Positions 1,983 to 35,376 of a DNA stretch of 64,000 nucleotides are shown here, piece after piece. Each line of letters starts with the position of its first letter. The stretch's first letter is position 1. The DNA is from an uncultured Syntrophomonadaceae bacterium (GTDB lineage: Bacteria > Bacillota > Dethiobacteria > DTU022). A program made the position numbers and the translations under genes. The DNA lies in the NCBI GenBank assembly GCA_964420065.1, contig CAYQQK010000003.1, positions 20,478 through 84,477 on the forward strand. Direction: 5' to 3'. Below the pieces are notes generated by a model that was not told the origin of the DNA, searched no databases, and worked only from the letters and a program-made list of their open reading frames with translations.

Positions 1983-4900
1983 GTTTCACCAACTACCCCG
2001 ATCAATAGGGGACTGAAAGACGGCCCGGCGTGATCTTTCGCAGGTAGTCGATATGTGTTTCACCAACTACCCCGATCAATAGGGGACTGAAAGCCGGTCA
2101 TCGGATCCGGATAGGTAGCTTCGAAATAGTTTCACCAACTACCCCGATCAATAGGGGACTGAAAGCTTGTGGTTTTTAATTCAGTGTCAACGTCAATGGT
2201 TATGTTTCACCAACTACCCCGATCAATAGGGGACTGAAAGACCTTCGGATAAACAGGCGGACAAGGCACGAGACGAGTTTCACCAACTACCCCGATCAAT
2301 AGGGGACTGAAAGGGCAAAAAGATGGCCAAATAACAAAGGTTACATTGACGTTTCACCAACTACCCCGATCAATAGGGGACTGAAAGCCTGGTATTCACT
2401 GTGGGTCATTTTCATCTTCATCTGTTTCACCAACTACCCCGATCAATAGGGGACTGAAAGACTTCTCCGGCGGTCTGTCTGATGCGGCCCCCGATGAGTT
2501 TCACCAACTACCCCGATCAATAGGGGACTGAAAGTATACACCTACCTTCAGCGCCACATCGGCAAAGAAAGTTTCACCAACTACCCCGATCAATAGGGGA
2601 CTGAAAGTTACGCGCTTTCGAACATCCGGCAGTGGCTGAACAAGGTTTCACCAACTACCCCGATCAATAGGGGACTGAAAGTGAAGGACTGGTAATTGCC
2701 CAGGTTTTTAACATATCGTTTCACCAACTACCCCGATCAATAGGGGACTGAAAGAATGAATAAAAAAAGAGGCAGGATCTAATCGACCCTGCGTTTCACC
2801 AACTACCCCGATCAATAGGGGACTGAAAGTGTAACAGGATCAAAATAACCATGAACATATAAACTTGTTTCACCAACTACCCCGATCAATAGGGGACTGA
2901 AAGTATGCCCAGTAAAGCGGAGCAATGTCAATATATCTTTGTTTCACCAACTACCCCGATCAATAGGGGACTGAAAGTACCCCAGAAAGCTCCTCCCCTT
3001 GCAACATCGTGACGTTGTTTCACCAACTACCCCGATCAATAGGGGACTGAAAGACTCTTTGGCCATGCGCCGGGAGAACCGCACGCACTCGTTTCACCAA
3101 CTACCCCGATCAATAGGGGACTGAAAGGAACTGGAGGAGCCGGAAATAGGAATTGAGGAACGGCGTTTCACCAACTACCCCGATCAATAGGGGACTGAAA
3201 GCGTGGAGGGGGAGCAGGGGGTGGCTGCGTCTCCGGCTGTTTCACCAACTACCCCGATCAATAGGGGACTGAAAGAGGGGCTGCTTTGCTGCTGCTGGAC
3301 CGGCCATCAGGGGTTTCACCAACTACCCCGATCAATAGGGGACTGAAAGCAAAGTTTCACCCGGGCGTTCCCAGCGTCGATGCCTGTTTCACCAACTACC
3401 CCGATCAATAGGGGACTGAAAGGGGAAAGAAGGGCAAGACCTTTAACGCTTTCATCAACGTTTCACCAACTACCCCGATCAATAGGGGACTGAAAGGGAT
3501 TGACGGCTCCGGGGCAGGCCGTAAGACTAGAGTTTCACCAACTACCCCGATCAATAGGGGACTGAAAGATCAGCTCTACCTGATGGACTCCTCGTGCTCG
3601 GTGTTTCACCAACTACCCCGATCAATAGGGGACTGAAAGATAACCCCGGGAGTGGGGAGCAGGTAACCTTCTTTGTTTCACCAACTACCCCGATCAATAG
3701 GGGACTGAAAGGCTTGCGGTAGGCGGGATCTACGGAGTGCTCAAGCTGTTTCACCAACTACCCCGATCAATAGGGGACTGAAAGAGCATCGTCACGTTGG
3801 TGTTGGAACTGGATGCGGCGTTTCACCAACTACCCCGATCAATAGGGGACTGAAAGCTTCCGGCGGGGGCCTGGCCTTTGAGCTACCCGGCGTTTCACCA
3901 ACTACCCCGATCAATAGGGGACTGAAAGAATCATCGGCAAGATCGGTGTGGCAGCGAAAGGCATCGGTTTCACCAACTACCCCGATCAATAGGGGACTGA
4001 AAGCCCAACAGCGCCACCAGCCACCAATTGATCCGGTCCGTTTCACCAACTACCCCGATCAATAGGGGACTGAAAGCCAAAGAGTTACTCCTGGAACATA
4101 CATTTTTTCACTTGTTTCACCAACTACCCCGATCAATAGGGGACTGAAAGGTTCCTGATCCTGGTTGGCCTAACCGTTCCTGTAACCGTTTCACCAACTA
4201 CCCCGATCAATAGGGGACTGAAAGCCAGACAATGATCCACCACTTGCATTTACTCTTTGTGTTTCACCAACTACCCCGATCAATAGGGGACTGAAAGCTG
4301 GGACAATTTACCTTGGGATAATGGGAAAGAAATAGTTTCACCAACTACCCCGATCAATAGGGGACTGAAAGTGTTTGGGAAAAGCACCACGGCCGCGAGG
4401 TGCCGCGTTTCACCAACTACCCCGATCAATAGGGGACTGAAAGGGAACTTTCCGATAGCCGGCACGTTCTGGACACAGACAGTTTCACCAACTACCCCGA
4501 TCAATAGGGGACTGAAAGCAAAACCTACCACACAGCTTTGGCAGTTTGTGTGGTAACGTTTCACCAACTACCCCGATCAATAGGGGACTGAAAGTTTGGC
4601 GAGGCGAAGAAAAAACCACCAGCCTACCCGGTTTCACCAACTACCCCGATCAATAGGGGACTGAAAGCGCTGCATTTTCCACAGAATATCAGGCCCGATA
4701 AAAGGTGTTTCACCAACTACCCCGATCAATAGGGGACTGAAAGGATAAGGATACCTATATTCTCTTTTGGTTTTTACATGTTTCACCAACTACCCCGATC
4801 AATAGGGGACTGAAAGCGGGATAAATAACTCTCCCACTTTTTTAACATGCATTGTTTCACCAACTACCCCGATCAATAGGGGACTGAAAGACACATGTTG

Positions 4901-5265
4901 CGGCATACCTTTGCCACGGACCTGCTGCGTTTCACCAACTACCCCGATCAATAGGGGACTGAAAGCGTCATACAGGGCTGCCGCACTGGTGGGATAGTCT
5001 TTGTTTCACCAACTACCCCGATCAATAGGGGACTGAAAGTATACTTACAGCAAGGAGTGATCGTCGTGAAAAAGAAAAAAATAACCTTCTACATCCGGCA
5101 CGAGGTTGCAGAAGCCCTTCGCCTTTTTGCGTTTAAGCAACGCACTAGCCGAAGCGCCGTTGTCGAACTCGCCCTAGAAAAATGCATTCCCGAAAGCTAC
5201 TTTCGGGAGGTAAACCCTATCGAATAGCGTTTCACCAACTACCCCGATCAATAGGGGGCTGAAAG
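1983..5265 (+). CRISPR. CRISPR array: 42 identical 37-nt repeats (GTTTCACCAACTACCCCGATCAATAGGGGACTGAAAG), then a 189-nt atypical insert, then one degenerate terminal repeat (A>G)
   Basis: I counted repeat starts at 1983, 2057, 2129 ... 5003; spacers are 35-38 nt. The repeat has a 4-bp stem (CCCC/GGGG) followed by an 8-nt ACUGAAAG 3' handle, typical of Cas6-processed type I-A/I-B/III repeats. The terminal repeat at 5229-5265 reads GGGGGCTGAAAG. Confidence 0.97.
5066..5227 (+). CDS. Small ribbon-helix-helix (CopG/Arc-like) protein encoded inside the CRISPR array trailer (53 aa, below the ORF-track cutoff)
   Basis: GTG start 8 nt after an AAGGAGTGA RBS. Translation VKKKKITFYIRHEVAEALRLFAFKQRTSRSAVVELALEKCIPESYFREVNPIE has a beta-strand followed by two helices. 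It sits between the last perfect repeat (ends 5039) and the degenerate terminal repeat (5229). Confidence 0.45.
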   Translation: MKKKKITFYIRHEVAEALRLFAFKQRTSRSAVVELALEKCIPESYFREVNPIE

Positions 5266-5318
5266 AAAGGTAATGAAATTTATTGGTTTGAATTTACGTT
5301 GGTAATTGCGGTATTTTT

Positions 5319-5501
5319 ATGAGCATGGCATCGATGCAGCCCCTGTTCGGGTGGATACTTGATCGTTCCTGGCAGGGAGCGCTGATCGAGGGAGTGCGTT
5401 GTTACCCTCTTTCCGGCTATCGCGCCGCTTTTGGATTATGTCTTGCGGGGGTGTTGCTCTCCCTGGTCGCCGGTTTTTGTATCCGCGAAAAACACCGCTA
5501 G
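5319..5501 (+). pseudogene. Possible C-terminal remnant of an MFS-type transporter at the array trailer
   Basis: A 60-aa ORF with a hydrophobic C-terminal TM-like segment (GLCLAGVLLSLVAGF) and no plausible full-length gene upstream. Confidence 0.2.
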
Positions 5502-5597: not shown

Positions 5598-5702
5598 ACC
5601 CTGACCGACAAAGGCAAACCTGTCGAAAGACAGGGACGCAAAGCCATGGGTCTACAGCCCGCGCAGGCGGGCCATGATTGCCAAGCTGCCGAAACAGGGC
5701 TT
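5598..5702 (+). ncRNA. Cyclic-di-GMP-I (GEMM) riboswitch aptamer
   Basis: GGCAAACC-TGTC-GAAAG-ACAGGGACGCAAAGCC ... GCCAAGCTGCCGAAA matches the GEMM-I core (GNRA loop, GGGACGCAAAGCC, receptor hairpin). A downstream CCCTC...GGAGGG hairpin could sequester the SD of the following gene. Confidence 0.7.
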
Positions 5703-5748: not shown

Positions 5749-7155
5749 ATGCCGATTTACAGAGGCAAATCCACGGCAAGAATCATTCGTCTCCTGACCA
5801 TCATTATCATCTTCTTTTTGATTGCGGCGGCAGGGGCAAACTATGCCGCCGAAAGCGAGGGCTTTGACGGTCATGCAGTGCAAGGCAGCTTTCCGGGCGA
5901 TGGCGGGCAGCCGCTGGAAAGTTCACCAGCTCACGATCCGGTTAGTCTTGCAGACGTCCCGGCATCGCCGTTACCGGAAGACAAGCTTTTAGATTCCGCA
6001 CTCCCGGAGCCCAAGCCTGTTTCCGATTGTGGTTTAAATCCTGATTCCAATCATGGTGTTTCCTCGAATCTATCACCTTCAATGTCCGAACCGATCCCCC
6101 CGCCTTCATCCGAGCCGGCTCCAACGTCTTCCCCGGAGGAACCCGTAACACCGACGGCATCGCAGTCGGCCACCCGATCAGGTGCCGCCCCGGTTGTTCC
6201 GTTACCGGTCGAAAAACCGGTTGACGCCACCACCGGCCCGGCGGCGGATAAAGTTGTTCACGAGCCCGGTACTGCAATTTCCCCTATTACCCTTGGGCCC
6301 GGATGTAACCGCAATTTGCGTATGCGCATCAAGGTGACAAATTCCGGTGGTGACGAATCCCGTGAAATCAGGGTTGAAATACCCCTTTTGGGAACACTAA
6401 GTTCACCTTATCAGGTTGTGTTGCAGGAAACGTTCAGTCATACTCCTACCGCTGTCGACACCCTGGCCCAGGGTAGCCGGGTCGGCCATTTTTATATTGA
6501 TGCCCTGGCACCCGGCTCATCCATAACCCTTGTTATTGACTACTCCGTGCGGGTCCACCCCTTGATCGCCCATTTTGATGCTTACACCGGAGGGCCGCTT
6601 TCCATGTCACCCGGTTTTCTTCTTCCTTCGTCTCGAATCGAAAGCGATAACCCCAGGATTATAGCCCGGGCGGCGGATATTACTTCCGGTAAAATTAACG
6701 ATTTGGAAAAAGCCCGGGCGATCTACGGGTTTGTACAGCAGTATCTGCGGTATGATTTGAATTCGCCGCACCGCAATCAGGGGGCGCTGTCTGCCCTCGA
6801 AAATGCCACCGGGGTTTGTGAAGATTATGCCGCTCTCTTTGCCGCGCTCTGCCGGGCATCCGGTATACCGGCCCGCCAGGTCAACGGTTATACCGATCCC
6901 CGAGGAATAGGTGAAATATTTAACACTTCCCTCTCCCTGCACGGTTACCGGCATAGCTGGGCGGAATTTTACCTTGAGGGTATGGGTTGGCTGCCGGCGG
7001 ATCCGGCCATGGGCATCGGTTCTCCCTCGGTGTCATATTTTGGCTCTTTACCGGGGGCCGGCCACATCGCTCAAAATTACCAGGATCAGCCCATGCGGGT
7101 CAAATTTACGGGCGGCCAGTTGGCAGTGACCTGGGACGAGCTGTTATTTCAGTAA
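5749..7155 (+). CDS. Exported or membrane-anchored transglutaminase-like cysteine protease-fold protein with a Pro/Ser-rich linker
   Basis: N-terminal TM/signal (RIIRLLTIIIIFFLIAAAG) and a PS-rich low-complexity segment. Transglutaminase core motifs GVCEDYAALFAALCRASGIPAR ... HSWAEFY ... WLPADP. GGAGGG RBS before the ATG at 5749. The ORF-track start at 5674 lies inside the riboswitch. Confidence 0.7.
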   Translation: MPIYRGKSTARIIRLLTIIIIFFLIAAAGANYAAESEGFDGHAVQGSFPGDGGQPLESSPAHDPVSLADVPASPLPEDKLLDSALPEPKPVSDCGLNPDSNHGVSSNLSPSMSEPIPPPSSEPAPTSSPEEPVTPTASQSATRSGAAPVVPLPVEKPVDATTGPAADKVVHEPGTAISPITLGPGCNRNLRMRIKVTNSGGDESREIRVEIPLLGTLSSPYQVVLQETFSHTPTAVDTLAQGSRVGHFYIDALAPGSSITLVIDYSVRVHPLIAHFDAYTGGPLSMSPGFLLPSSRIESDNPRIIARAADITSGKINDLEKARAIYGFVQQYLRYDLNSPHRNQGALSALENATGVCEDYAALFAALCRASGIPARQVNGYTDPRGIGEIFNTSLSLHGYRHSWAEFYLEGMGWLPADPAMGIGSPSVSYFGSLPGAGHIAQNYQDQPMRVKFTGGQLAVTWDELLFQ

Positions 7156-8387: not shown

Positions 8388-9590
8388 TCAAGCCTGTCTG
8401 TGCACGGCCTTTTCGCTTATAATCGTAGTTTGCCCGGCTCTGATATCCGGCAAGGTAAAGGCAAAGATCAGCCCCAGGATCGGAAGAATGCTGATCACCT
8501 TCATCGCAAAAGGCAGGCCGGCATGGTCGGCAATCGCACCGAGCAAGGTTACCCCGACGGAACCCATGCCTACCCCGAAACCAAGCAATAGCCCCGAGGC
8601 AAGGCCAATGTTTTGCGGCAAGAGTCTCTGTCCGAAAACAACCGTGGTCGAAAAGGTTGAGATCAGTGCAGCCCCGGCAATAAAGGCAAAAACGGGGATA
8701 AAGGTACCGCTTAAATGCAAAAACGGGTAAATCGTGATCAAACAAATAGCCATGGAGAACAGCAAACCGTTGCGTCCACCGAAACGATCGGCGAAAGGGC
8801 CGCCCAGGACGGTACCGACCGCTCCGGCAATCAAAAATATGCTGACCAGGTATTCCGGCTTGGCAACACCTTCAAAACCATGGAAGTAAAAGGGGATAAA
8901 GTAAACCAACCCGGATTGGATCCAGGATCTAATCGTCACGTAGATGATCAGACGCACCAGCTCCGCCACCCTGCTCGGGTAGGTTTGAACGGGTTTTTTC
9001 ACCGCCTCTTTTTTCTGTACCGGCATTTTATCGGCCAGGATTGCTTTAAATTTAGGCAAAAAAAACATGAAAAGCAGGGCGGAAAGGATTCCCGGGACAG
9101 CTATCCAATGAACCGTATCTAACCCGGCAAAACTTAGGACAAAGACAGCCAAGATCGGACCCAAACCATAGCCAAGATTTCCGCCTACTGAAAAAATCGC
9201 CATCGATGCTCCGGCTCGTTCCTCTTTACTCACGTAATGAGCCAGTTTGGACCCCTCCGGGTGGTACCCGGCAATCCCGATCCCGCTTAAAAGCACGACA
9301 AATAACAGTAGGCCATAGGAATTAATTTTCCCGGTCAGGGATAAACCTAACCCGGAAAGAAAAAGCCCGAGCGGCATTAACCAGGGCATCCGGTAACGAT
9401 CGCTGAAAACGCCAAAAAACGGTTGAATAATGGCCGAACTAAAAGTGAAGGCTAGCACAATTACACCGACCTGGAAATAGCTCAGGTTCAAACTTTCGGC
9501 CATTAATGGGGTTAAAATGGGCAAAGCACCCTGGCTCAAGTCAACAATCAGGTGACCGATGCTCAAAATCCATAAGTAAGGGCTAAACAA
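8388..9590 (-). CDS. MFS transporter
   Basis: 400 aa with 12 predicted TM helices and the MFS loop motif GVFSDRYR. Confidence 0.7.
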   Translation of the reverse strand: MFSPYLWILSIGHLIVDLSQGALPILTPLMAESLNLSYFQVGVIVLAFTFSSAIIQPFFGVFSDRYRMPWLMPLGLFLSGLGLSLTGKINSYGLLLFVVLLSGIGIAGYHPEGSKLAHYVSKEERAGASMAIFSVGGNLGYGLGPILAVFVLSFAGLDTVHWIAVPGILSALLFMFFLPKFKAILADKMPVQKKEAVKKPVQTYPSRVAELVRLIIYVTIRSWIQSGLVYFIPFYFHGFEGVAKPEYLVSIFLIAGAVGTVLGGPFADRFGGRNGLLFSMAICLITIYPFLHLSGTFIPVFAFIAGAALISTFSTTVVFGQRLLPQNIGLASGLLLGFGVGMGSVGVTLLGAIADHAGLPFAMKVISILPILGLIFAFTLPDIRAGQTTIISEKAVHRQA

Positions 9591-9623: not shown

Positions 9624-11255
9624 TTAACCGGCCATAAAATGCTTCAAATCCGCTTCAAGAGTGCCAATCCCGGTCAGGCCAAACTTTTCGGCCAGGACCC
9701 TGGTGACATTGGGGGAGAAGAATGCCGGCAGGGTTGGGCCAAGGTGAATATTTTTAATGCCCAGATAGAGCAGTGCCAGGAGCACGGTAACCGCTTTCTG
9801 TTCATACCAGGCGATATTGAAAGCAAGCGGCAACTGATTGATATCGTCAAGCCCAAAAGCCTCCTTGAGCTTGAGGGCTATCAGGGCCAGTGAGTAAGAA
9901 TCGTTGCATTGACCGGCGTCCAGTACCCGGGGAATGCCGTTTATATCGCCCAATTTCAGCTTGTTGTAGCGGTACTTGGCACAGCCGGCTGTTAGAATGA
10001 CGGTATTCTGCGGTAGCTTTTGGGCGAATTCCGTGTAATACCGTCTTGATTTCATCCGTCCGTCGCAACCGGCCATGACAAAGAATTTTTTAATCGCTCC
10101 GGATTTAACCGCTTCAATGATCTGATCGGCCAGAGCCATAACCTGATGATGGGCAAAGCCGCCGGTAATGCTCCCAGTTTCGATCTCAGCGGGTGGTGGG
10201 AGAGTCCCCGCAAGCGCGATGATTTCGGAAAAATCCTTTTTACCGTTTTCATCTTCTTCAATATGTCGGCAGCCGGGGCAACCGCTTGACCCGGTCGTAA
10301 AAATCCTGTTTCTAATCTCTTCGCTTCGGGGGGGGACAATACAGTTCGTTGTAAACAAGATTGGACCGTGAAAGGAGGCAAACTCATCGGACTGTTTCCA
10401 CCAGGCGTTACCGTAATTGCCGGCAAGGTGCTCGAATCGTTTGAATGCCGGGTAAGAATGAGCCGGTAGCATCTCACCGTGGGTGTAAACATCGATGCCG
10501 CTGCCCCAGGTTTGCTTCAACAGTTGGTCGAGATCGGTGAGGTCATGGCCGGAAATGAGAATGGCCGGGTTTTTTCGGACACCAATATTGACCGAGGTTA
10601 TTGCGGGATTGCCGAAACGTGAGGTGTGGGCCCTGTCCAGAAGGGCCATCACCTTGACGCAGTACTCCCCGGTTTTTAGCGTCAGTGCGACCAGATCGTT
10701 CACCGTGAGCGAATCGTCCAAAGTGGCGGCCAGCGTTTCATAGATAAAGGAATTGAGGTCAAGATCTTCTGTGCCGATATTTTTTGCATGCTCGGCATAA
10801 GCCGCCATACCCTTTAACCCGTAAGTGATCAACTCGCGCAAGGAGCGCACGTCTTGATCCACGGTTGCAAGGACGCCCACTGCGGCGGCTTTTTCCAGCA
10901 TCTCTTCCCGCGTACTGACCTTGAAGGTAGCCGCGTCGTGCAAGCTTTTCAGGGGTAAGGAATCCCCGAGTTCATCCCGGGTGGCGATCATCTTCAAGAT
11001 CTGTTTTTCAAACGAAGGCTCATCCCAGTTTGCGTTGGTAATGGTCATGAAAAGACTGTCCAATACGGCACAGTTCGCCGGGCCAAGTTTGTTTAGATCG
11101 AGTTTGCCTTTGACTACGATTTCCGCAACACCTTTTACTGTGTATATGAGTAAATCTTGCAGTTGAGCCAGTGTTTCGTTTTTTCCACAAACACCGCGAA
11201 CCGTGCAACCCTTGCCTTTGGCTGTCTCCTGACATTGATAACAAAACATTTTCAT
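9624..11255 (-). CDS. hcp: Hybrid-cluster protein / hydroxylamine reductase
   Basis: N-terminal [23 protein letters not shown] cysteine motif; 543 aa is typical for Hcp. Confidence 0.9.
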
Positions 11256-11320
11256 TTTCCGCCTCCCGTATTTTTACAAGACGTAGGGGAGGGCTCCCCC
11301 ATGTTGTCCCGATGTTATTT

Positions 11321-11635
11321 TCAACTACCCGGGGCCGGCGCCTTGATGACAATTAGCTCCAGCATTCCACTGTGTAGGTTCTTTACGTTCATTTTGGTTT
11401 GAAAAGGTATTGTGAGAAGAGTTCCCGCCCCGTACTCGTGAGTTTCCTGTTCATTCCGGCTGATGGAAAGCTTTCCATGGATTACGGTCATGTAAACGTT
11501 GGAGTTGGAAAGATGTTCCGGGAGCCCTTCATTTTTATTAAACAGCATATGAAGATAATGAATATTTTCGTCAAACACGATCTTTTCAACCTTTTTCCGG
11601 TTGCTTGAGGATAGCTTGAACACTTGTTCGATCAT
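11321..11635 (-). CDS. Cupin-domain protein, co-directional with and upstream of hcp
   Basis: 104 aa beta-barrel-like sequence (VYMTVIHGKLSI...HEYGAGTLLTIP). Confidence 0.5.
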   Translation of the reverse strand: MIEQVFKLSSSNRKKVEKIVFDENIHYLHMLFNKNEGLPEHLSNSNVYMTVIHGKLSISRNEQETHEYGAGTLLTIPFQTKMNVKNLHSGMLELIVIKAPAPGS

Positions 11636-11902
11636 GTCCCTTTACTCTCCTTTGTGCCATCCCGGATTTTTCTTCTCATTATTATATCATACGGCCTGAA
11701 CCTTGCGGATCGCCTGTCAGTTGGAGGATTTAAAGGATTCCGTTGAAGCTTGTTGTGACCCGCTGTAGTGAAAATTGCAAGGAGTTGGTTCCGCAGCAAA
11801 TGTTTGTTTTATATAACAGCCGGTTATTGTGAACCGGATCATTTGAAACTGGCAGGGCTGCTGCGGACGGTTGCTATCCCGGGCCTGCGTGATGCGGGCG
11901 GG

Positions 11903-13240
11903 TCAGGGGGACGGTGTCTCTCGATCATTGCCGCCGGGTAATTGATCCGGACGGCCGGTCCCCAAAAGATGTTCCATAATCAATACTGTTATAACGCCGA
12001 TCACAAGCCCGTTACCAAGGATTGGTCTCAAAACGACGGGGAAGGTACTGATGATATTTGAAGGAAGAAAAGAGATAACAATGCCCAACATCAATGGGAA
12101 CCCCATCACCAGACCGGTTTCAAAATTAAAACCATTTTTAGAATTGAAAGCCATGGTCAATCCGACTGCCAGTTGCGAACAGATGATAAACAAAAAAATG
12201 GACCCGATGACCACGGTGGGGATCGTACCCATAGCGGCTATTACCGGGGGCAGAAAGGAAATGATGATCAAAACTATCCCTGCCGGAATGAGAGCATTGC
12301 TGTAACTGCAACCGGTAGAAACAATTACTCCGGGGCTCAAGGAGTAATTGACAGGGCCAATCACACCGAAGAGCCCGGAGAAAAGGTTAAGCAAACCGGT
12401 GATCGACAGCCCACGGGAAACCCTTTTTGGCAAATGATCCGGTTTTACCAGGCTGCCAACGGAATAGAATGCACCCAAATCGTTGATGGACAAGGCGAGA
12501 AAACAGACCAAGAAAGAAAGAATTACCCCCGGATCGAAATCAAGCGAGAAAATTGTATTTTGGAAAAAAGCGGCGAAAATGACGCCGCCGGTTTCCTCCA
12601 TTGGTTGCAACCTTTGCGGAAAAAGTAACTTATGGGCAATCATGCCTGCTACCAAGGACCACATAATCAAGGATGATTTCCAGAAGCCAGTGGCATGTTT
12701 GTTTGCCACGAAGATACAGAACACAAAGGCTAGGGCGAAACAAAGGTTTGGCAAAGCCAGTTCCGGCTTGGCGGGGGCTATAATCAGGTCGCCGATCATC
12801 GGAATCAATGAAAACGCAACCAGGATGAGAACAGTCGCAACCACCGTGTCAGTAAAAAGCCTCTGGATATAGCTGAATAAACCGGTCACACCCGAAAGGA
12901 AAAGAAAAAATCCACCCACGGCAGCCGCCGTGTACACGGCGGCAGGGCTACTGGAGCGGCTGGCTATGACTCCGACCAGCAAAATGGAGGAAGGCCCGAT
13001 AATAAGCGGGAGCCGGTGTCCCCAAAACAATTGGACCAAAAAGGACACTCCAGAAATGAAAAAAATCTTTTGCAGGTAGTTGACCTGATCTAGTGGGCAA
13101 GCATAATGGATGGCTGCCGCTATATTTCCAGTAATAAGCACAAGGGGAACGGCGACCACAAACCATGTCAATCCGACAAACATCAGTTCAGCAAAAGGGG
13201 GCATTTCATTTAGTTTGTACTTCAATTTCACCTGGTCCAT
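11903..13240 (-). CDS. Polytopic permease, NCS2/SulP-like fold (putative nucleobase/anion transporter)
   Basis: About 445 aa and highly hydrophobic, with an architecture similar to UraA-type permeases. Start chosen at the internal Met (MDQVKLKYKL). Confidence 0.45.
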   Translation of the reverse strand: MDQVKLKYKLNEMPPFAELMFVGLTWFVVAVPLVLITGNIAAAIHYACPLDQVNYLQKIFFISGVSFLVQLFWGHRLPLIIGPSSILLVGVIASRSSSPAAVYTAAAVGGFFLFLSGVTGLFSYIQRLFTDTVVATVLILVAFSLIPMIGDLIIAPAKPELALPNLCFALAFVFCIFVANKHATGFWKSSLIMWSLVAGMIAHKLLFPQRLQPMEETGGVIFAAFFQNTIFSLDFDPGVILSFLVCFLALSINDLGAFYSVGSLVKPDHLPKRVSRGLSITGLLNLFSGLFGVIGPVNYSLSPGVIVSTGCSYSNALIPAGIVLIIISFLPPVIAAMGTIPTVVIGSIFLFIICSQLAVGLTMAFNSKNGFNFETGLVMGFPLMLGIVISFLPSNIISTFPVVLRPILGNGLVIGVITVLIMEHLLGTGRPDQLPGGNDRETPSP

Positions 13241-18010: not shown

Positions 18011-19417
18011 ATGAGGCTACGAGTCGAAAGAGATTATTTGGGTGAACTGAGTATTCCCGATAAGTCACTTTACGGGATTCAGACCTTCCGGGCGGTACAA
18101 AACTTTCCTGTTACCGGTCTGAAACTGGACCGGGATCTGATCATGGCTCTGGGAATTGTCAAAGGGGCAGCGGCACAGGCCAACTTAATACAGGGTAGCC
18201 TCGACCCAAAAATCGCCGAGGCGGTAATTGAGGCTGCGGCGGAAATAGCGGGCGGGAAGCTGCTGGAACATTTTCCGGTAGACCCGATCCAGGGCGGAGC
18301 GGGGACATCGATGAATATGAATATCAACGAAGTCATTGCCAACCGGGCCATCGAAATTCTAGGCGGGAAACGGGGTTATTATCACCTTGTATCTCCAAAC
18401 AGCCATGTCAATATGTCGCAATCAACCAATGACGTCATCCCCACCGCTGCCCGCATTGCCGCATTGAAAAAAACGGGGATGCTTCTGGAGACAGTTGATC
18501 ATACCATCGCCGTGCTGCAACAAAAAGAAAGGGAATTTGATGATTGTGTCAAAATTGGGCGAACCCACCTCCAGGACGCGGTCCCGATCCGGCTCGGGCA
18601 GGAGTTCGGTGCCTATGCCGCGGCTGTTACGAGAGCGCGGGAAAATATTGTTACGGCTTGTAGCGGTCTCGAAGAGATCAACATCGGTGCGACGGCTGTG
18701 GGAACCGGGTTGAACGCCGATCCGGGCTATGTCCGGACCACGGTGAGAATATTGCGCGAATTGTCCGGTTTAAACTTGAGGCTGGCCGGAAACCTGGTTG
18801 ATGCGACCCAGAACGAGGACACTTATGTTGTTGTGTCGGCCTCGTTAAAGCAACTGGCCGTGGTCTTGAGCAAGATGGCCAACGATCTCCGGCTCATGGC
18901 TTCAGGGCCACGCTGTGGTTTGCATGAAATTTATCTGCCCGAGGTCCAGCCCGGTTCATCGATCATGCCGGGCAAAGTCAACCCGGTTTTGCCGGAAACC
19001 GTGAACCAGGTTGCCTTCCAGGTTATCGGCAACGATGCTACGATCTGCATGGCCGCTGAAGCGGGACAATTCGAACTCAACGTCATGGTTCCGGTGATCT
19101 ATTTCAACCTGTTTCAGTCATACGAAATTATGACCAACGTTCTTCGTCCTTTCATCGATCACTGTCTGAACGGGATTAAGCCCAACCGGGAGCGTTGCCG
19201 GGATTATGCCGAAAAAAACGCCGGAGTGGCGACGGCACTGAACCCCTATATCGGGTATGAAAAAGCCTGCCGGGTTGCCCGTGAAGCGATGGAAACGGGC
19301 CGGACGGTGCGGGAGATAGCCATGGCTGACAATCTATTTCACCCCAAAAAATTGGACCAAATTTTAGATCCCGTGAAGATGACCATGCCCGGCATAGCCG
19401 GCAGGGAACCTCAATAA
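18011..19417 (+). CDS. aspA: Aspartate ammonia-lyase / class II fumarase family
   Basis: GSSIMPGKVNP signature, N-terminal ERDYLGE..YGIQTFRAVQNF, 468 aa. Confidence 0.75.
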   Translation: MRLRVERDYLGELSIPDKSLYGIQTFRAVQNFPVTGLKLDRDLIMALGIVKGAAAQANLIQGSLDPKIAEAVIEAAAEIAGGKLLEHFPVDPIQGGAGTSMNMNINEVIANRAIEILGGKRGYYHLVSPNSHVNMSQSTNDVIPTAARIAALKKTGMLLETVDHTIAVLQQKEREFDDCVKIGRTHLQDAVPIRLGQEFGAYAAAVTRARENIVTACSGLEEINIGATAVGTGLNADPGYVRTTVRILRELSGLNLRLAGNLVDATQNEDTYVVVSASLKQLAVVLSKMANDLRLMASGPRCGLHEIYLPEVQPGSSIMPGKVNPVLPETVNQVAFQVIGNDATICMAAEAGQFELNVMVPVIYFNLFQSYEIMTNVLRPFIDHCLNGIKPNRERCRDYAEKNAGVATALNPYIGYEKACRVAREAMETGRTVREIAMADNLFHPKKLDQILDPVKMTMPGIAGREPQ

Positions 19418-19509
19418 TGAAACGGTACTTAATAATGCTTGAATTTTGACGAAAGAAACCGTAGAGGAAGGGATGGCGCCTGTAACCGTGGCAATACGAG
19501 GTGACCTGA

Positions 19510-20718
19510 ATGCGAAAACTACCTTTATGGGCCTTGCGACCCGGCATGGAAGTAGCCCGGCGGGTCTACGACGGCAACGGTTTTTTGCTTTTGAACACCG
19601 GGGTTAAACTAAGACGGGCCTATATCGAGGGGCTGAAGGCTCACTGTATTCCCGCAATCTATATTGTTGATGATCTTATTCCAGACGTCCAAATTGTAGA
19701 CGTGATCCTTGATAAAACTCGACGGCGGGCCACCAGCCTGGTCCGCAAAATTATTTGTCAAGCACAACAATCGCCACAAAAAAACAAAAAGGAACAGGTA
19801 TTTCTTCCCCGGAGAGAATTGGAAACCGTTCTGGAGGAAATTATTTCCCAACTGCTCCACAACCGTCACCTGGCGATCAATATGACGGATATTCGCAGTG
19901 CGGATAGCTATACTTTTTCCCACTCGGTGAACGTAGCCGTCCTGGCAATAGTGACTGCAGCCGCCATGGGGTTGTCCCTTTCCGAGCTGCACCGGATCGG
20001 GCTGGGTGCGTTGCTGCACGATCTCGGGAAAACAAAAATTCCGCCTGCCATTCTGAACAAACGGACCCCGCTCCGGAGTGAAGAGATGGAACGGATTAAA
20101 CAACACCCGGCCGATGGTTACCGGATGTTGCAAACACAAAACTTTGGTTCCGCCGCCGCTTTGGTGGTTTATCAGCACCATGAACGCATTGATGGCAGCG
20201 GTTACCCCGACGGTATCACCGGAACAGAGATCGAACTTTTCTCCAAGATCGTCGCTGTAGTCGATGTTTATGACGCCCTGGTTTCCGATCGCCCGTATCG
20301 CCCGGCTTTTCCGCCACACCAGGCGATGGAGATTATCCAGGCCGGTAACGGCAGTTTTGATCGGGGTATTGTTGATAGGTTTCGCTATCATGTTCCGGCT
20401 TTCCCCGTGGGGACGATCGTGGCATTAAGTGACGGTTTTATCGGTGTGGTCGTTCAAAACACGGTTGGTTTTCCAACCAGTCCCCGGGTGCGAATCTTTT
20501 GCCGGCTTGAAACTTTTGAACCGGTAGTTCCTTTTGAAATAAATTTAGCCGACTCCCTTTCGGTGGTTGTAATCAAAGTCCTCGATGACCGGGAACTGCC
20601 TGATCCGTTGCCGATCCACGAATCCTGTCATGCAGCCAAACACAAGGGAAGTGCAAACATTCCGGCGCTGCACGGTGGAATCAGCAAGGCAAACCGTAGG
20701 GAAAAACCAACGGCCTAG
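19510..20718 (+). CDS. HD-GYP domain c-di-GMP phosphodiesterase
   Basis: HD motif (LLHDLGKTKIP) and HHERIDGSGYPDG (GYP) motif. Confidence 0.8.
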   Translation: MRKLPLWALRPGMEVARRVYDGNGFLLLNTGVKLRRAYIEGLKAHCIPAIYIVDDLIPDVQIVDVILDKTRRRATSLVRKIICQAQQSPQKNKKEQVFLPRRELETVLEEIISQLLHNRHLAINMTDIRSADSYTFSHSVNVAVLAIVTAAAMGLSLSELHRIGLGALLHDLGKTKIPPAILNKRTPLRSEEMERIKQHPADGYRMLQTQNFGSAAALVVYQHHERIDGSGYPDGITGTEIELFSKIVAVVDVYDALVSDRPYRPAFPPHQAMEIIQAGNGSFDRGIVDRFRYHVPAFPVGTIVALSDGFIGVVVQNTVGFPTSPRVRIFCRLETFEPVVPFEINLADSLSVVVIKVLDDRELPDPLPIHESCHAAKHKGSANIPALHGGISKANRREKPTA

Positions 20719-20729
20719 GGGGTAGCATC

Positions 20730-22529
20730 GTGAACCGGTCAGGGAACAATGGTCTGGATCAACCGGGTCAGGTTACGGTGATCAAGGGCGAGGCTAAAGT
20801 AATTGATCCTTGCGGGGCAGGCAGCACGGCCTGCATTTGCCCCGGTAAAGGGGTGTCCGTGCTCATTAACGGGGTCAAAATCTTCCGGCGTACACCCGTT
20901 TACTCCACCGATCGGATTCAAATTGAGACTGCGGGCAGCGTGGAACCGGCCAAGGTTTCCGTCCGAATTGCCCCCGACGGGATGTCAGCGGAGGCGGTGT
21001 TGTTCCCTCCGTTAACGGTTACCCATACACTGCCCGACTATCCGCCTTCGCCCGATCTCGAAATCGATGTTGTTGCCCGGGAAGAATACGGCGCCCTGTC
21101 ACTGGAGGAGGCTCTCGGCTTGCTGAGAGAACAGGGGGTTACCTTTGGGCTGGACGAAAAGGCGATTACAGAGCTGCTAAACAAACCCGGTGACTGGGGC
21201 GAGGTCGCCCGGGGTCGCCCGGTGGTGCCCGGCCGCGACGGTTGGGTCGAACCGCAGCATCAAGAATTGTTAAAAAAAGTTGTGTACGGTGAAAATGAAA
21301 ACCGGGTTGATTACCGGGAACGTTTTAAAATTTTACATGTGCAAACAGGCGACCTGCTGGCCCGCATTTGTCCCCCGGTTCCCGGGACGGTCGGGAAGCA
21401 GGTCACCGGTCGCGAAGTAGCAGCCCCACCGGTCTTCCCGGCGGAGGTCCAATGTGGAAAAGGGGCGACACTAAGTCCTGATGGGAGCCAAGTGTTCGCC
21501 AACCGGGTTGGAGCTCCGGTTTATCGGAAAGGCAAGATCCATCTCTTCCGGGTGGACAATCTTTATGTTCACCAGGGCAACATCGATATTCGCAGCGGCA
21601 ACACTGCTTTTCAGGGACATCTCAAGATTCAGGGTGATATCATGGAAGGCATGTCTGTTTCGGCCGAGGGCGAAATCGAGATTGCGGGCCATGCGACCGG
21701 GGCCAATATTTCGGCTGAGGGGCAGGTCATCATCAAAAATAATTGCATCAACTGCCATATTGAAGCCGGTCGAAAACAGATTGTCCGGAATGAATTTGGA
21801 GCTTACCTGAAGGAAACGATTGAGGTGATCGACAATGTTGGCGCCGCCTGCCGGAAGATTATCAGTACCCTGGAAAAACGCGGTCAAAAGGCCGGAGACC
21901 GCCTGCCCTTGATCATGCGCATGGTCGTGCAGAGCAAATTCCCAGCCGCGCCGCAACAGGTAATGGATAATATAGACAAAGCGGAGCGACTGAAACAGTT
22001 TTTGCCGGAAAAGGTTCTTGATTCCCTGCATTATTGCGCCGGTTTTTTTGGGGCATTACAGAATGGGGGCCGTCCGGTCGATTTTACAATGTTGAAGGAG
22101 ATACGGATCGGGCTGGCCCGGGCCGTCGCCTACCTCGATGAAGGCGAAATGGAAGGGATGGGCATCGTGGCCCATTACGTTCAAAACAGCACCCTGCTCT
22201 GCACCGGGGATATTACCATTTCCGGCCCGGGAGTCTACAATTCTACTTTAAAATGCAACGGTGCCGTCCGGGTGGAACGCATTTTTCGCGGTGGTAAAAT
22301 CGGCGCCGGCGGCGACGTCTGGATCGGTAAGGCAGGCACGGCCCGCCTTTCCGTCCAACAAGGGCTGATCCAGGTCCCCCCCGGGAACAAAATCCATCTC
22401 GGCCTGGCCTATGAAAACATGAAAGTGCAGATCGGACCCTCTTTTTATACCCTGAAACAGACCCTGACCGGGATCTGCCTTGCCCTCGATCCCGATAGTC
22501 TGCAGATCCGGATCCAACCCCGCTCTTAA
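20730..22529 (+). CDS. FapA-family (DUF342) flagellar assembly protein A-like, beta-helical
   Basis: 599 aa with C-terminal repetitive beta-helix-like segments (VSAEGEIEIAGHATGANISAEGQVII...). Located immediately upstream of flgM. Confidence 0.55.
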   Translation: MNRSGNNGLDQPGQVTVIKGEAKVIDPCGAGSTACICPGKGVSVLINGVKIFRRTPVYSTDRIQIETAGSVEPAKVSVRIAPDGMSAEAVLFPPLTVTHTLPDYPPSPDLEIDVVAREEYGALSLEEALGLLREQGVTFGLDEKAITELLNKPGDWGEVARGRPVVPGRDGWVEPQHQELLKKVVYGENENRVDYRERFKILHVQTGDLLARICPPVPGTVGKQVTGREVAAPPVFPAEVQCGKGATLSPDGSQVFANRVGAPVYRKGKIHLFRVDNLYVHQGNIDIRSGNTAFQGHLKIQGDIMEGMSVSAEGEIEIAGHATGANISAEGQVIIKNNCINCHIEAGRKQIVRNEFGAYLKETIEVIDNVGAACRKIISTLEKRGQKAGDRLPLIMRMVVQSKFPAAPQQVMDNIDKAERLKQFLPEKVLDSLHYCAGFFGALQNGGRPVDFTMLKEIRIGLARAVAYLDEGEMEGMGIVAHYVQNSTLLCTGDITISGPGVYNSTLKCNGAVRVERIFRGGKIGAGGDVWIGKAGTARLSVQQGLIQVPPGNKIHLGLAYENMKVQIGPSFYTLKQTLTGICLALDPDSLQIRIQPRS

Positions 22530-35295: not shown

Positions 35296-35376
35296 AGACC
35301 GAAAAGAGGGCAAACCCGTCGCAAGGCGGGGACGCAAAGCCACGGATCCGTTTCGGATTGCCAGGCTGCCGGTCGG
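35296..35376 (+). ncRNA. Cyclic-di-GMP-I (GEMM) riboswitch aptamer in the flgB leader
   Basis: P1 GACCG/CGGTC encloses AGGGCAAACC-CGTC-GCAA-GGCGGGGACGCAAAGCC ... GATTGCCAGGCTGCCGG, which matches the GEMM-I core. Confidence 0.75.

Follow-up and report, generated by a model that had tools for sequence, protein, structure and literature searches.

A ribbon-helix-helix gene between the last two repeats of a type I CRISPR array in an uncultured Syntrophomonadaceae bacterium

CRISPR arrays, named for their clustered and regularly interspaced short palindromic repeats, are assumed to hold short non-coding memories only, and open reading frames (ORFs) predicted within them are as a rule dismissed as artefacts. 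How, then, did a complete gene come to stand between two CRISPR repeats, and what might it do there? This question is raised by a 64,000-nucleotide (nt) stretch of DNA from an uncultured Syntrophomonadaceae bacterium (GenBank assembly GCA_964420065.1, contig CAYQQK010000003.1, positions 20,478 to 84,477), hereafter the window. Its CRISPR array lies on the + strand at positions 1983 to 5265 and ends in a 189-nt unit encoding a 53-amino-acid (aa) ribbon-helix-helix (RHH) protein. The gene itself is real: it has free-standing homologues, its fold is predicted with confidence, and it fits the spacer slot perfectly. From the sequence, we propose that it is a repressor gene captured from a mobile element into the oldest spacer slot, co-transcribed with the precursor of the CRISPR RNAs (pre-crRNA), expressed and functional, a reading to which we give a little less than an even chance.

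The array is built from 43 repeats, each 37 nt long, with 42 units between them. All 43 copies of the repeat (GTTTCACCAACTACCCCGATCAATAGGGGACTGAAAG) are on the + strand within 1983 to 5265, 42 of them perfect, and zero copies are expected in shuffled sequence. Forty-one of the units are 34 to 39 nt long; the last, at 5040 to 5228 on the + strand, is framed by two array repeats as a canonical spacer is but measures 189 nt. On its left stands the last perfect repeat (5003 to 5039, + strand, 0 mismatches). The terminal repeat on its right (5229 to 5265, + strand) is identical at 36 of 37 positions, the only difference being an A>G substitution at 5258, position 30 of the repeat, which yields GGGGGCTGAAAG; all related repeat consensi have A here. 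The changed base is the first of the 8-nt handle, beside the expected cleavage site. The initial annotation, made from the letters of the DNA alone, had described the overlong last segment, the single A>G in the terminal repeat and a small gene in the pre-crRNA orientation, and had called the segment not spacer-like; on all of these points our analysis agrees, the unit being 189 nt long and holding an intact CopG/Arc-like RHH gene between repeats. The counter-explanation offered there, that the terminal repeat might be an accidental repeat-like 37-mer, is ruled out by the 36/37 identity. Simple flanking DNA was rejected as the origin of the segment on the same identity and because the segment is homologous to a mobile-element gene and not to host flank.

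Within the unit, a Shine-Dalgarno sequence, AAGGAG (5052 to 5057, + strand), lies 8 nt 5' of the GTG start of the RHH gene (5066 to 5227, + strand), which consists of 53 codons plus stop and encodes VKKKKITFYIRHEVAEALRLFAFKQRTSRSAVVELALEKCIPESYFREVNPIE; ribosome-binding site, start codon and length are all as first described. The stop codon (5225 to 5227) ends one base short of the terminal repeat, and the NCBI annotation of the source genome gives the same 53-aa product (P0001). The closest homologous gene region, on a mobile-element contig (L001), is similar over the whole length of the unit, from its first base, through the ribosome-binding site and ORF, to the A-TAG-C at the stop. In this alignment the first six bases of the unit, TATACT (5040 to 5045, + strand), stand opposite the TATAAT -10 box of the L001 homologue, and the -35 position is occupied by CRISPR repeat (CCCGAT), which is not promoter-like. 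What the 189-nt unit holds is a single gene that lacks its -35 element and abuts a whole repeat on either side. Its GC content is 47%, versus 46% in the cas genes and 55% in the window, and we counted the below-window value toward a mobile-element origin. In the conserved IPESYF codons, a perfect 9-bp hairpin (TCCCGAAAG-CTA-CTTTCGGGA, 5188 to 5208) arises from four synonymous codon choices unlike those of the L001 homologue, where, by reading of the sequence, the same codons pair over only ~4 bp. The hairpin is terminator-like on the - strand only, where it is followed by a T-run; such a terminator would keep antisense transcription from entering the array.

To place the protein, we ran a word-indexed search of 5.8 billion proteins and, with a two-sequence profile, scanned 1.84 billion representatives in full by HMMER. 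The former matched the protein itself and one relative, P0002 (53 aa, 73% identical), the product of the L001 gene; the latter gave 46 matches, ~40 of which are small proteins of 47 to 60 aa. Family members share the pattern K..tYl..e...ALR.fA......S..VVE.AL.K.IP..YF, with a conserved C-terminal IPxxYF. A few carry an N-terminal extension (85 to 98 aa) and a few are tandem double-RHH chains; four proteins (P0014, P0017, P0019 and P0023) are single chains of 96 to 121 aa with two tandem RHH units, that is, natural covalently linked dimers. Scored with the family hidden Markov model (HMM), the window protein reaches 87.7 bits, and free-standing members reach 69 to 94 bits.

Single-sequence profile searches of Pfam and NCBIfam gave sub-threshold hints (DUF6364, E = 1e-3; RHH_1, 0.13; aCcr1, 2e-3), and scores stayed below the Pfam gathering thresholds for RHH_1 (PF01402, 12.7 versus 20.5 bits) and DUF6364 (PF19891, 19.8 versus 27.3 bits). 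RHH_1 was matched by 10 of 29 family members at E ≤ 0.1 (best, 2.5e-6). Against the Protein Data Bank (PDB), a 29-member profile matched 9kkd, annotated "CopG family" (1.3e-7), VapB26 (9e-5), ORF56 of pRN1 (1e-4) and CopG (0.015), and also the RHH proteins CdbA, E73 and SvtR. AlphaFold2, given the family alignment, predicted an extended N-terminal segment followed by helices at residues 12 to 25 and 29 to 40 (predicted local distance difference test score, 88.9). Nearly all of the top 50 Foldseek matches in the PDB to this model were RHH proteins, led by CopG, with a root mean square deviation of 0.9 Å over 37 residues and 35% identity. In PHROGs, the match was to an "Arc-like repressor" (E = 2e-4). 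The protein is a member of the ribbon-helix-helix (MetJ/Arc/CopG) superfamily, and the fold that had been proposed from its residues alone was recovered by profile and structure search alike. Among the stand-alone RHH repressors known from plasmids and phages, CopG of pMV158, Arc and Mnt of P22, ORF56 of pRN1 and SvtR of SIRV1 have the same fold and size, CopG being the best structural match. The window family differs from CopG/Arc-type repressors in being separate in sequence, with its own IPxxYF motif and scores below those two Pfam thresholds, and the window copy differs further in standing without a promoter, operator or ParA partner of its own, inside a CRISPR array.

The relatives point to where such a gene may have come from. 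The L001 contig encodes a Prim-Pol/DUF927 protein, an N6_N4 methylase and a ResIII helicase; by reading of the sequence, its RHH gene is served by a separate promoter (TTGCTA, 17 nt, TATAAT), and the surroundings are free of CRISPR repeats. On another contig (L088), genes for an HTH_17 protein, ParA and a 161-aa protein precede the RHH gene (P0008), which is followed by a gene for an NgoFVII-type restriction enzyme. Two long forms (P0062 and P0022, 94 to 96 aa) stand directly after ParA, and the P0022 contig (L097) also encodes a replication-type HTH_36 protein, TrbL and TraG; to judge by its neighbours, P0022 appears to be placed as a ParG-type centromere binder would be on a conjugative plasmid. 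The long forms match the description of such a protein, encoded directly downstream of a ParA/ParF ATPase and with a flexible N-terminal tail before the RHH; the window protein, with 53 aa, no tail and no ParA neighbour, is not a ParG. The other short forms stand alone, with upstream sequences that look like regulatory regions of their own. IMG/VR and the phage and plasmid collections contained no close relative by protein or DNA search. Judged by these neighborhoods, the habitat of the RHH family is plasmid-like or mobile elements, and the phrase "inserted regulator," one of several readings in the initial annotation, describes the window gene fairly.

Other readings in that annotation found less support. 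Many RHH proteins are antitoxins, and the weak matches to VapB26 and to Pfam Antitox_RHH might suggest an orphan antitoxin or the remnant of a toxin-antitoxin module, left by an inserted element or making the array end addictive. Toxin-antitoxin modules do decorate this CRISPR family, with MntA-HepT in the cas operon and a Phd/RelE element in a related array (L019, below). Yet no toxin ORF is present in or beside the unit, and no conserved downstream toxin was found in the nine relatives' loci examined, so that the adjacent cognate toxin that defines a type II antitoxin of the RHH class is missing. The protein, moreover, has 53 aa, of which 13 residues with the family-specific IPxxYF extend past the RHH core, and the unit bears no insertion scars. 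We consider an antitoxin origin very improbable. The suggestion of an anti-CRISPR-associated element fared no better. Aca14 is an RHH-type anti-CRISPR-associated regulator, a small mobile-element repressor that also occurs with restriction-modification genes (bioRxiv 10.64898/2026.07.27.740549), and one relative of the window protein, P0008, likewise precedes a restriction enzyme gene. The two proteins share the generic fold only: BLASTP gave no alignment and hhalign a probability of 21%, and no anti-CRISPR (acr)-like gene is adjacent to the window gene.

The position of the unit in the array depends on the array's orientation, which we read from the CRISPR locus and its relatives. On the + strand, cas2 (99 to 368; NCBIfam TIGR01573, E = 5e-16), cas4 (365 to 943; TIGR00372, E = 1e-33) and csa1, a Cas4-like gene of the type I-A-style adaptation module (950 to 1858; TIGR01896, E = 1.5e-62), are followed by a 124-nt leader (1859 to 1982, + strand) recognized by a block, TTTCGCA.ATACCC...GCAGAAAA..ATCTTCGG, that adjoins csa1 and is kept in five related loci. 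Just upstream, on the cas2 side, three Logan assemblies identical to the window carry cas1 and a gene for the HepT toxin (contig L082). We compared this arrangement with 80 loci encoding Csa1 relatives (36 to 78% identity), mostly from Bacillota metagenome-assembled genomes (MAGs) and Bathyarchaeia. In the bacterial loci, csa1 is directly followed by arrays whose repeats belong to one family with those of the window (...CCCG......AGGGGACTGAAAG), and degenerate repeats in related arrays sit at the csa1-distal end. In one of these loci, L005, the order is cas3, a large unassigned gene, cas7/Csa2, an unassigned gene, MntA-HepT, cas1, cas2, cas4, csa1 and array; this locus shows the system to be a type I CRISPR-Cas system, with a cas1-cas2-cas4-csa1 adaptation module. 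The repeat ends at its 3' side in the usual ...ACTGAAAG handle. This handle, the conserved leader block by csa1 and the csa1-distal repeat decay in related arrays agree and make the CRISPR RNA (crRNA) orientation secure. It follows that the 189-nt unit is the oldest slot and that the gene lies in the crRNA sense. As a separate observation, MntA-HepT stands between the effector and adaptation genes both in the genome of the window (L082, 127 to 558) and in L005 (7076 to 8103), where a DUF5615 protein is encoded upstream of cas3 (641 to 1039).

The same loci allowed us to ask whether such a gene is a regular component of these systems. With the family HMM, no RHH-family member was detected in any of the 80 csa1-linked loci. 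The only weak match (L019, 7746 to 8015) is an unrelated 83-aa RHH protein, whose gene adjoins an isochorismatase-like gene in the slot where MntA-HepT sits in L005. We therefore rejected a conserved CRISPR-associated RHH gene: because none of the 80 related loci encodes one, the RHH protein is not part of the conserved design of the CRISPR system. This count also bears on the idea that the protein regulates its own CRISPR-Cas locus, at the leader, the repeats or a cas promoter, its level reporting array transcription or processing in analogy to the repeat-binding Cbp1 of Sulfolobus or to Cas-sensing circuits. Such a role would suit a gene that lies in the array in sense orientation and lacks a -35 element; iterated sites are what RHH proteins typically bind, an array offers identical sites at regular intervals, and the long-form relatives occupy a ParG-type position directly after ParA. 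Against it stand the absence of the family from related CRISPR loci, the mobile-element habitat of its relatives, which have no CRISPR link, and the lack of any motif shared by the promoter repeats of the L001 homologue and the window. Autoregulation of the locus thus seems to us distinctly improbable.

How did the gene enter the array? The insert fits the gene exactly, from the -10 box remnant to one base past the stop; it has a homologue on a mobile element, and it bears no transposon hallmarks. An insertion sequence (IS), a miniature inverted-repeat transposable element or another transposon was rejected as the source, since there are no inverted ends, no target duplication and no spacer remnants, and both flanking repeats are whole. 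Two insertions in related arrays served as positive controls for such scars (inverted ends, and split repeats or spacer remnants). In L016 (15336 to 18769; Phosphitispora sp. TUW77), a 3.4-kb transposon lies inside a spacer, between two perfect repeats; its genes encode an rve-type transposase, spread over two ORFs, as well as an AAA ATPase and a 208-aa protein rich in Cys. In L019 (~18757 to 20247), a 1.45-kb element near the distal end of the array splits a repeat, with a 6-bp duplication (CCGCTG) and ~16-nt imperfect inverted ends (TGTTA..CGGCAAATT), and carries a Phd/YefM-RelE/ParE pair. Merged spacers with decayed repeats, for which the length would be suitable (189 nt being about three spacers plus two repeats), were rejected because the gene homology fills the unit. 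Nor did the other 41 spacers have significant matches to L001, other loci or the window.

The only other abnormal array units among the related loci are N-runs (L017, L040 and L077) and a decayed repeat (L042); in L024 (12566 to 12643), a 78-nt spacer consists of three tandem copies of the 20-nt sequence TTGCATATGTACATAATGCC. In L050, from a Caldisericota MAG (11048 to 12633 and 20630 to 20893), the array is broken twice by one and the same unit, composed of a repeat with an altered 3' end (…GGGGACTCCAAC), ~123 nt with a hairpin and T-run, and a variant repeat. After its last regular repeat stands a 126-aa ORF with a ribosome-binding site, its stop codon inside a further variant repeat. We considered this ORF as a second example of a gene in an array and rejected it: it has no homologue except itself and thus is not callable as a gene. 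Downstream, L050 has a type III-A module (Cas10, Csm subunits and Csm6) and a second array.

Long spacers of at least 100 nt occur sporadically in arrays and are mostly transposon-derived (PMC4524480), and their existence favors viewing the unit as an inert passenger or over-long spacer, the product of a freak acquisition or recombination from a plasmid. The first 35 to 40 nt of the unit would then serve at most as a guide against elements with this gene, the protein would have no role, and the ORF would owe its intact state to luck or to a recent event. That the unit is a single instance, absent from the 80 related loci, and that no promoter of its own and no target or operator was found at it are also consistent with inertness. 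What argues otherwise is its content. The unit holds exactly one whole gene with its ribosome-binding site, whereas in L001 37 of 10,456 possible 189-nt fragments (0.35%, by arithmetic from the gene table) would hold a whole gene with its ribosome-binding site, and half that number would hold it in sense orientation. Such a gene-exact fit speaks either for a product under selection or for some mechanism by which cassettes the size of a gene are moved. The gene is in sense orientation and, in the oldest slot and with 41 later spacers, shows no decay against the family profile. The long units known from the literature (PMC4524480) and from L016 and L019 resemble ours in far exceeding spacer length, but they carry transposases or inverted ends, with target duplication and split repeats or spacer remnants, and the window unit is a scar-free small gene of non-transposon type. 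An inert passenger is, in our judgment, rather unlikely.

If instead the gene was captured and is used, as we tentatively prefer, it may have entered via the repeats and would have done so early in the history of the array. Either Cas1-Cas2-Cas4-Csa1 would have inserted it as an over-long prespacer, or it would have come from an element with such repeats, through repeat-repeat recombination. It would be transcribed as the last unit of the pre-crRNA, by read-through from the leader; since its own -35 element is lost, its expression would depend on pre-crRNA transcription. Cleavage by a repeat endonuclease 8 nt from the repeat 3' end would then release a discrete RNA composed of the 8-nt ACUGAAAG handle, a 26-nt 5' untranslated region with the Shine-Dalgarno sequence, the ORF, and a repeat portion of 29 to 30 nt. 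The 3' cleavage might be impaired by the A>G substitution at 5258. On translation, the protein would form an RHH dimer and act as a sequence-specific DNA binder or repressor. A dimeric DNA binder fits this family because some of its members are single-chain tandem RHH proteins; the fold is well supported, and binding is presumed from it. The likeliest targets would be operators of the source element family, with a repressor- or incompatibility-type effect in trans, and the CRISPR leader or the repeats themselves would be less likely ones. In this scheme, selection and not chance would have kept the gene intact. A more ambitious version, which we regard as improbable on the available sequence, is that of a natural protein-coding CRISPR unit: the array would also be an operon whose last unit, excised by the repeat endonuclease, is the mRNA of a captured plasmid repressor, silencing or destabilizing incoming elements of the source family or, by way of the repeats or the leader, feeding back on array transcription.

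Several observations weigh against an expressed, functional captured gene and keep our estimate below an even chance. A 189-bp prespacer lies far beyond the normal integration size of Cas1-Cas2. No sigma-70-like promoter was detected at the unit, so that expression needs read-through of a 3-kb array, and the window, like the 10 kb upstream of the related locus L005, showed neither Cas6 nor an equivalent processing endonuclease. Direct repeats in the L001 promoter, a candidate operator, are absent from the window. None of the examined relatives is surrounded by flanking direct repeats or sits in an array, and the case remains single among the 80 csa1-linked loci. In metagenome scans with the variant terminal repeat and with the 3' half of the repeat, nothing or an unrelated array was found; there was no second copy of the unit and no close strain. 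Between the window RHH gene and that of P0002, pN is 0.20 and pS is 0.76 (saturated), values which indicate amino-acid constraint on the family and an ancient divergence of the two copies but which record purifying selection between two family members and not since capture. Finally, three Logan assemblies (SRR8925751-53), 100% identical to the window, stop at 2012 to 2019 and restart at 5615, leaving the unit uncovered. The RHH product has no record among the Logan assembly contigs.

These assemblies derive from full-scale biogas plants (PMC7842101). The window is apparently of biogas-plant metagenome origin too; arrays are hard to assemble, and the Logan contigs stop at this one, and one could imagine an assembly artefact in which a repeat-flanked fragment of another replicon was threaded into the array. 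Both junctions speak against this: on the right, a unique variant repeat runs into a unique chromosomal trailer, and on the left stands a perfect repeat with a unique spacer. A misjoin would, besides, need a second replicon with the same repeat on either side of this gene, which is the same oddity. We take an artefact to be highly unlikely.

The last of the initially suggested readings was a Cre-like module, in which the unit would yield a crRNA-like RNA directing Cascade, in the manner of CreA or CreR, to a promoter with a partial match, the ORF being incidental. The likeness to CreTA and CreR lies in a non-canonical unit between repeats at a type I locus, one of the repeats being a variant, as in the degenerate repeats of crRNA-like RNAs. 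Those guides, however, are spacer-sized and non-coding, have a partial promoter match and usually lie in the cas operon, whereas the window unit has 189 nt and not ~35, five times a spacer's length, is coding, occupies the distal position in an array of 42 units and is accompanied by no toxin. The longest matches of the unit to the available cas1-csa1 region or the rest of the window are 10 to 11 nt, which is chance level. Given also that the sequence is protein-coding under amino-acid constraint, we find a guide-RNA function extremely unlikely.

To our knowledge, no natural gene cassette framed by CRISPR repeats has been described, and our full-text literature search returned no bona fide gene in a spacer slot and no RHH protein in an array, only transposon-type long spacers. 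The nearest parallel is man-made: in synthetic biology, engineered cassettes flanked by Cas6 or Csy4 sites are used to insulate mRNAs. They share with the window unit a coding sequence and ribosome-binding site between CRISPR repeats, but the window case is natural, and its processing is predicted only. If expressed, the RHH gene would provide the first natural case of an mRNA with CRISPR repeats as its boundaries, and would point to adaptation or recombination machinery able to install whole genes in an array. If the protein-coding-unit reading were true, the host would be storing a protein-level memory of a mobile element beside its RNA-level memories. Even if inert, the unit is an integration product, 189 bp long and scar-free with both repeats intact, of a kind not foreseen by current models of spacer acquisition.

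Beyond the terminal repeat, a short trailer (5266 to 5318) leads to a 60-aa ORF (5319 to 5501, + strand) that resembles the C terminus of a major facilitator superfamily (MFS) transporter (tblastn, 39% identity over 51 aa, E = 3e-4). The matching gene is annotated as an MFS gene of a plasmid, and the ORF is probably a truncated remnant. This MFS-like ORF starts ~50 nt past the terminal repeat, which places the 189-nt unit on or close to the border of the CRISPR-Cas region. On the - strand, at 8388 to 9590, the window has an MFS gene that is intact. The window also contains two aptamers of the cyclic di-GMP-I riboswitch class, at 5604 to 5694 (RF03167, GGC variant, 74 bits) and at 35299 to 35373 (RF01051, 61 bits). 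Contigs L085 to L087, from the three independent Logan assemblies, all begin exactly at 5615, inside the first of these and not at the terminal repeat, and no window repeat explains this; strain variation, or a repeat in another part of the genome, may account for the common start. The same aptamer lies just upstream of a gene for a 468-aa transglutaminase-core protein (5749 to 7155).

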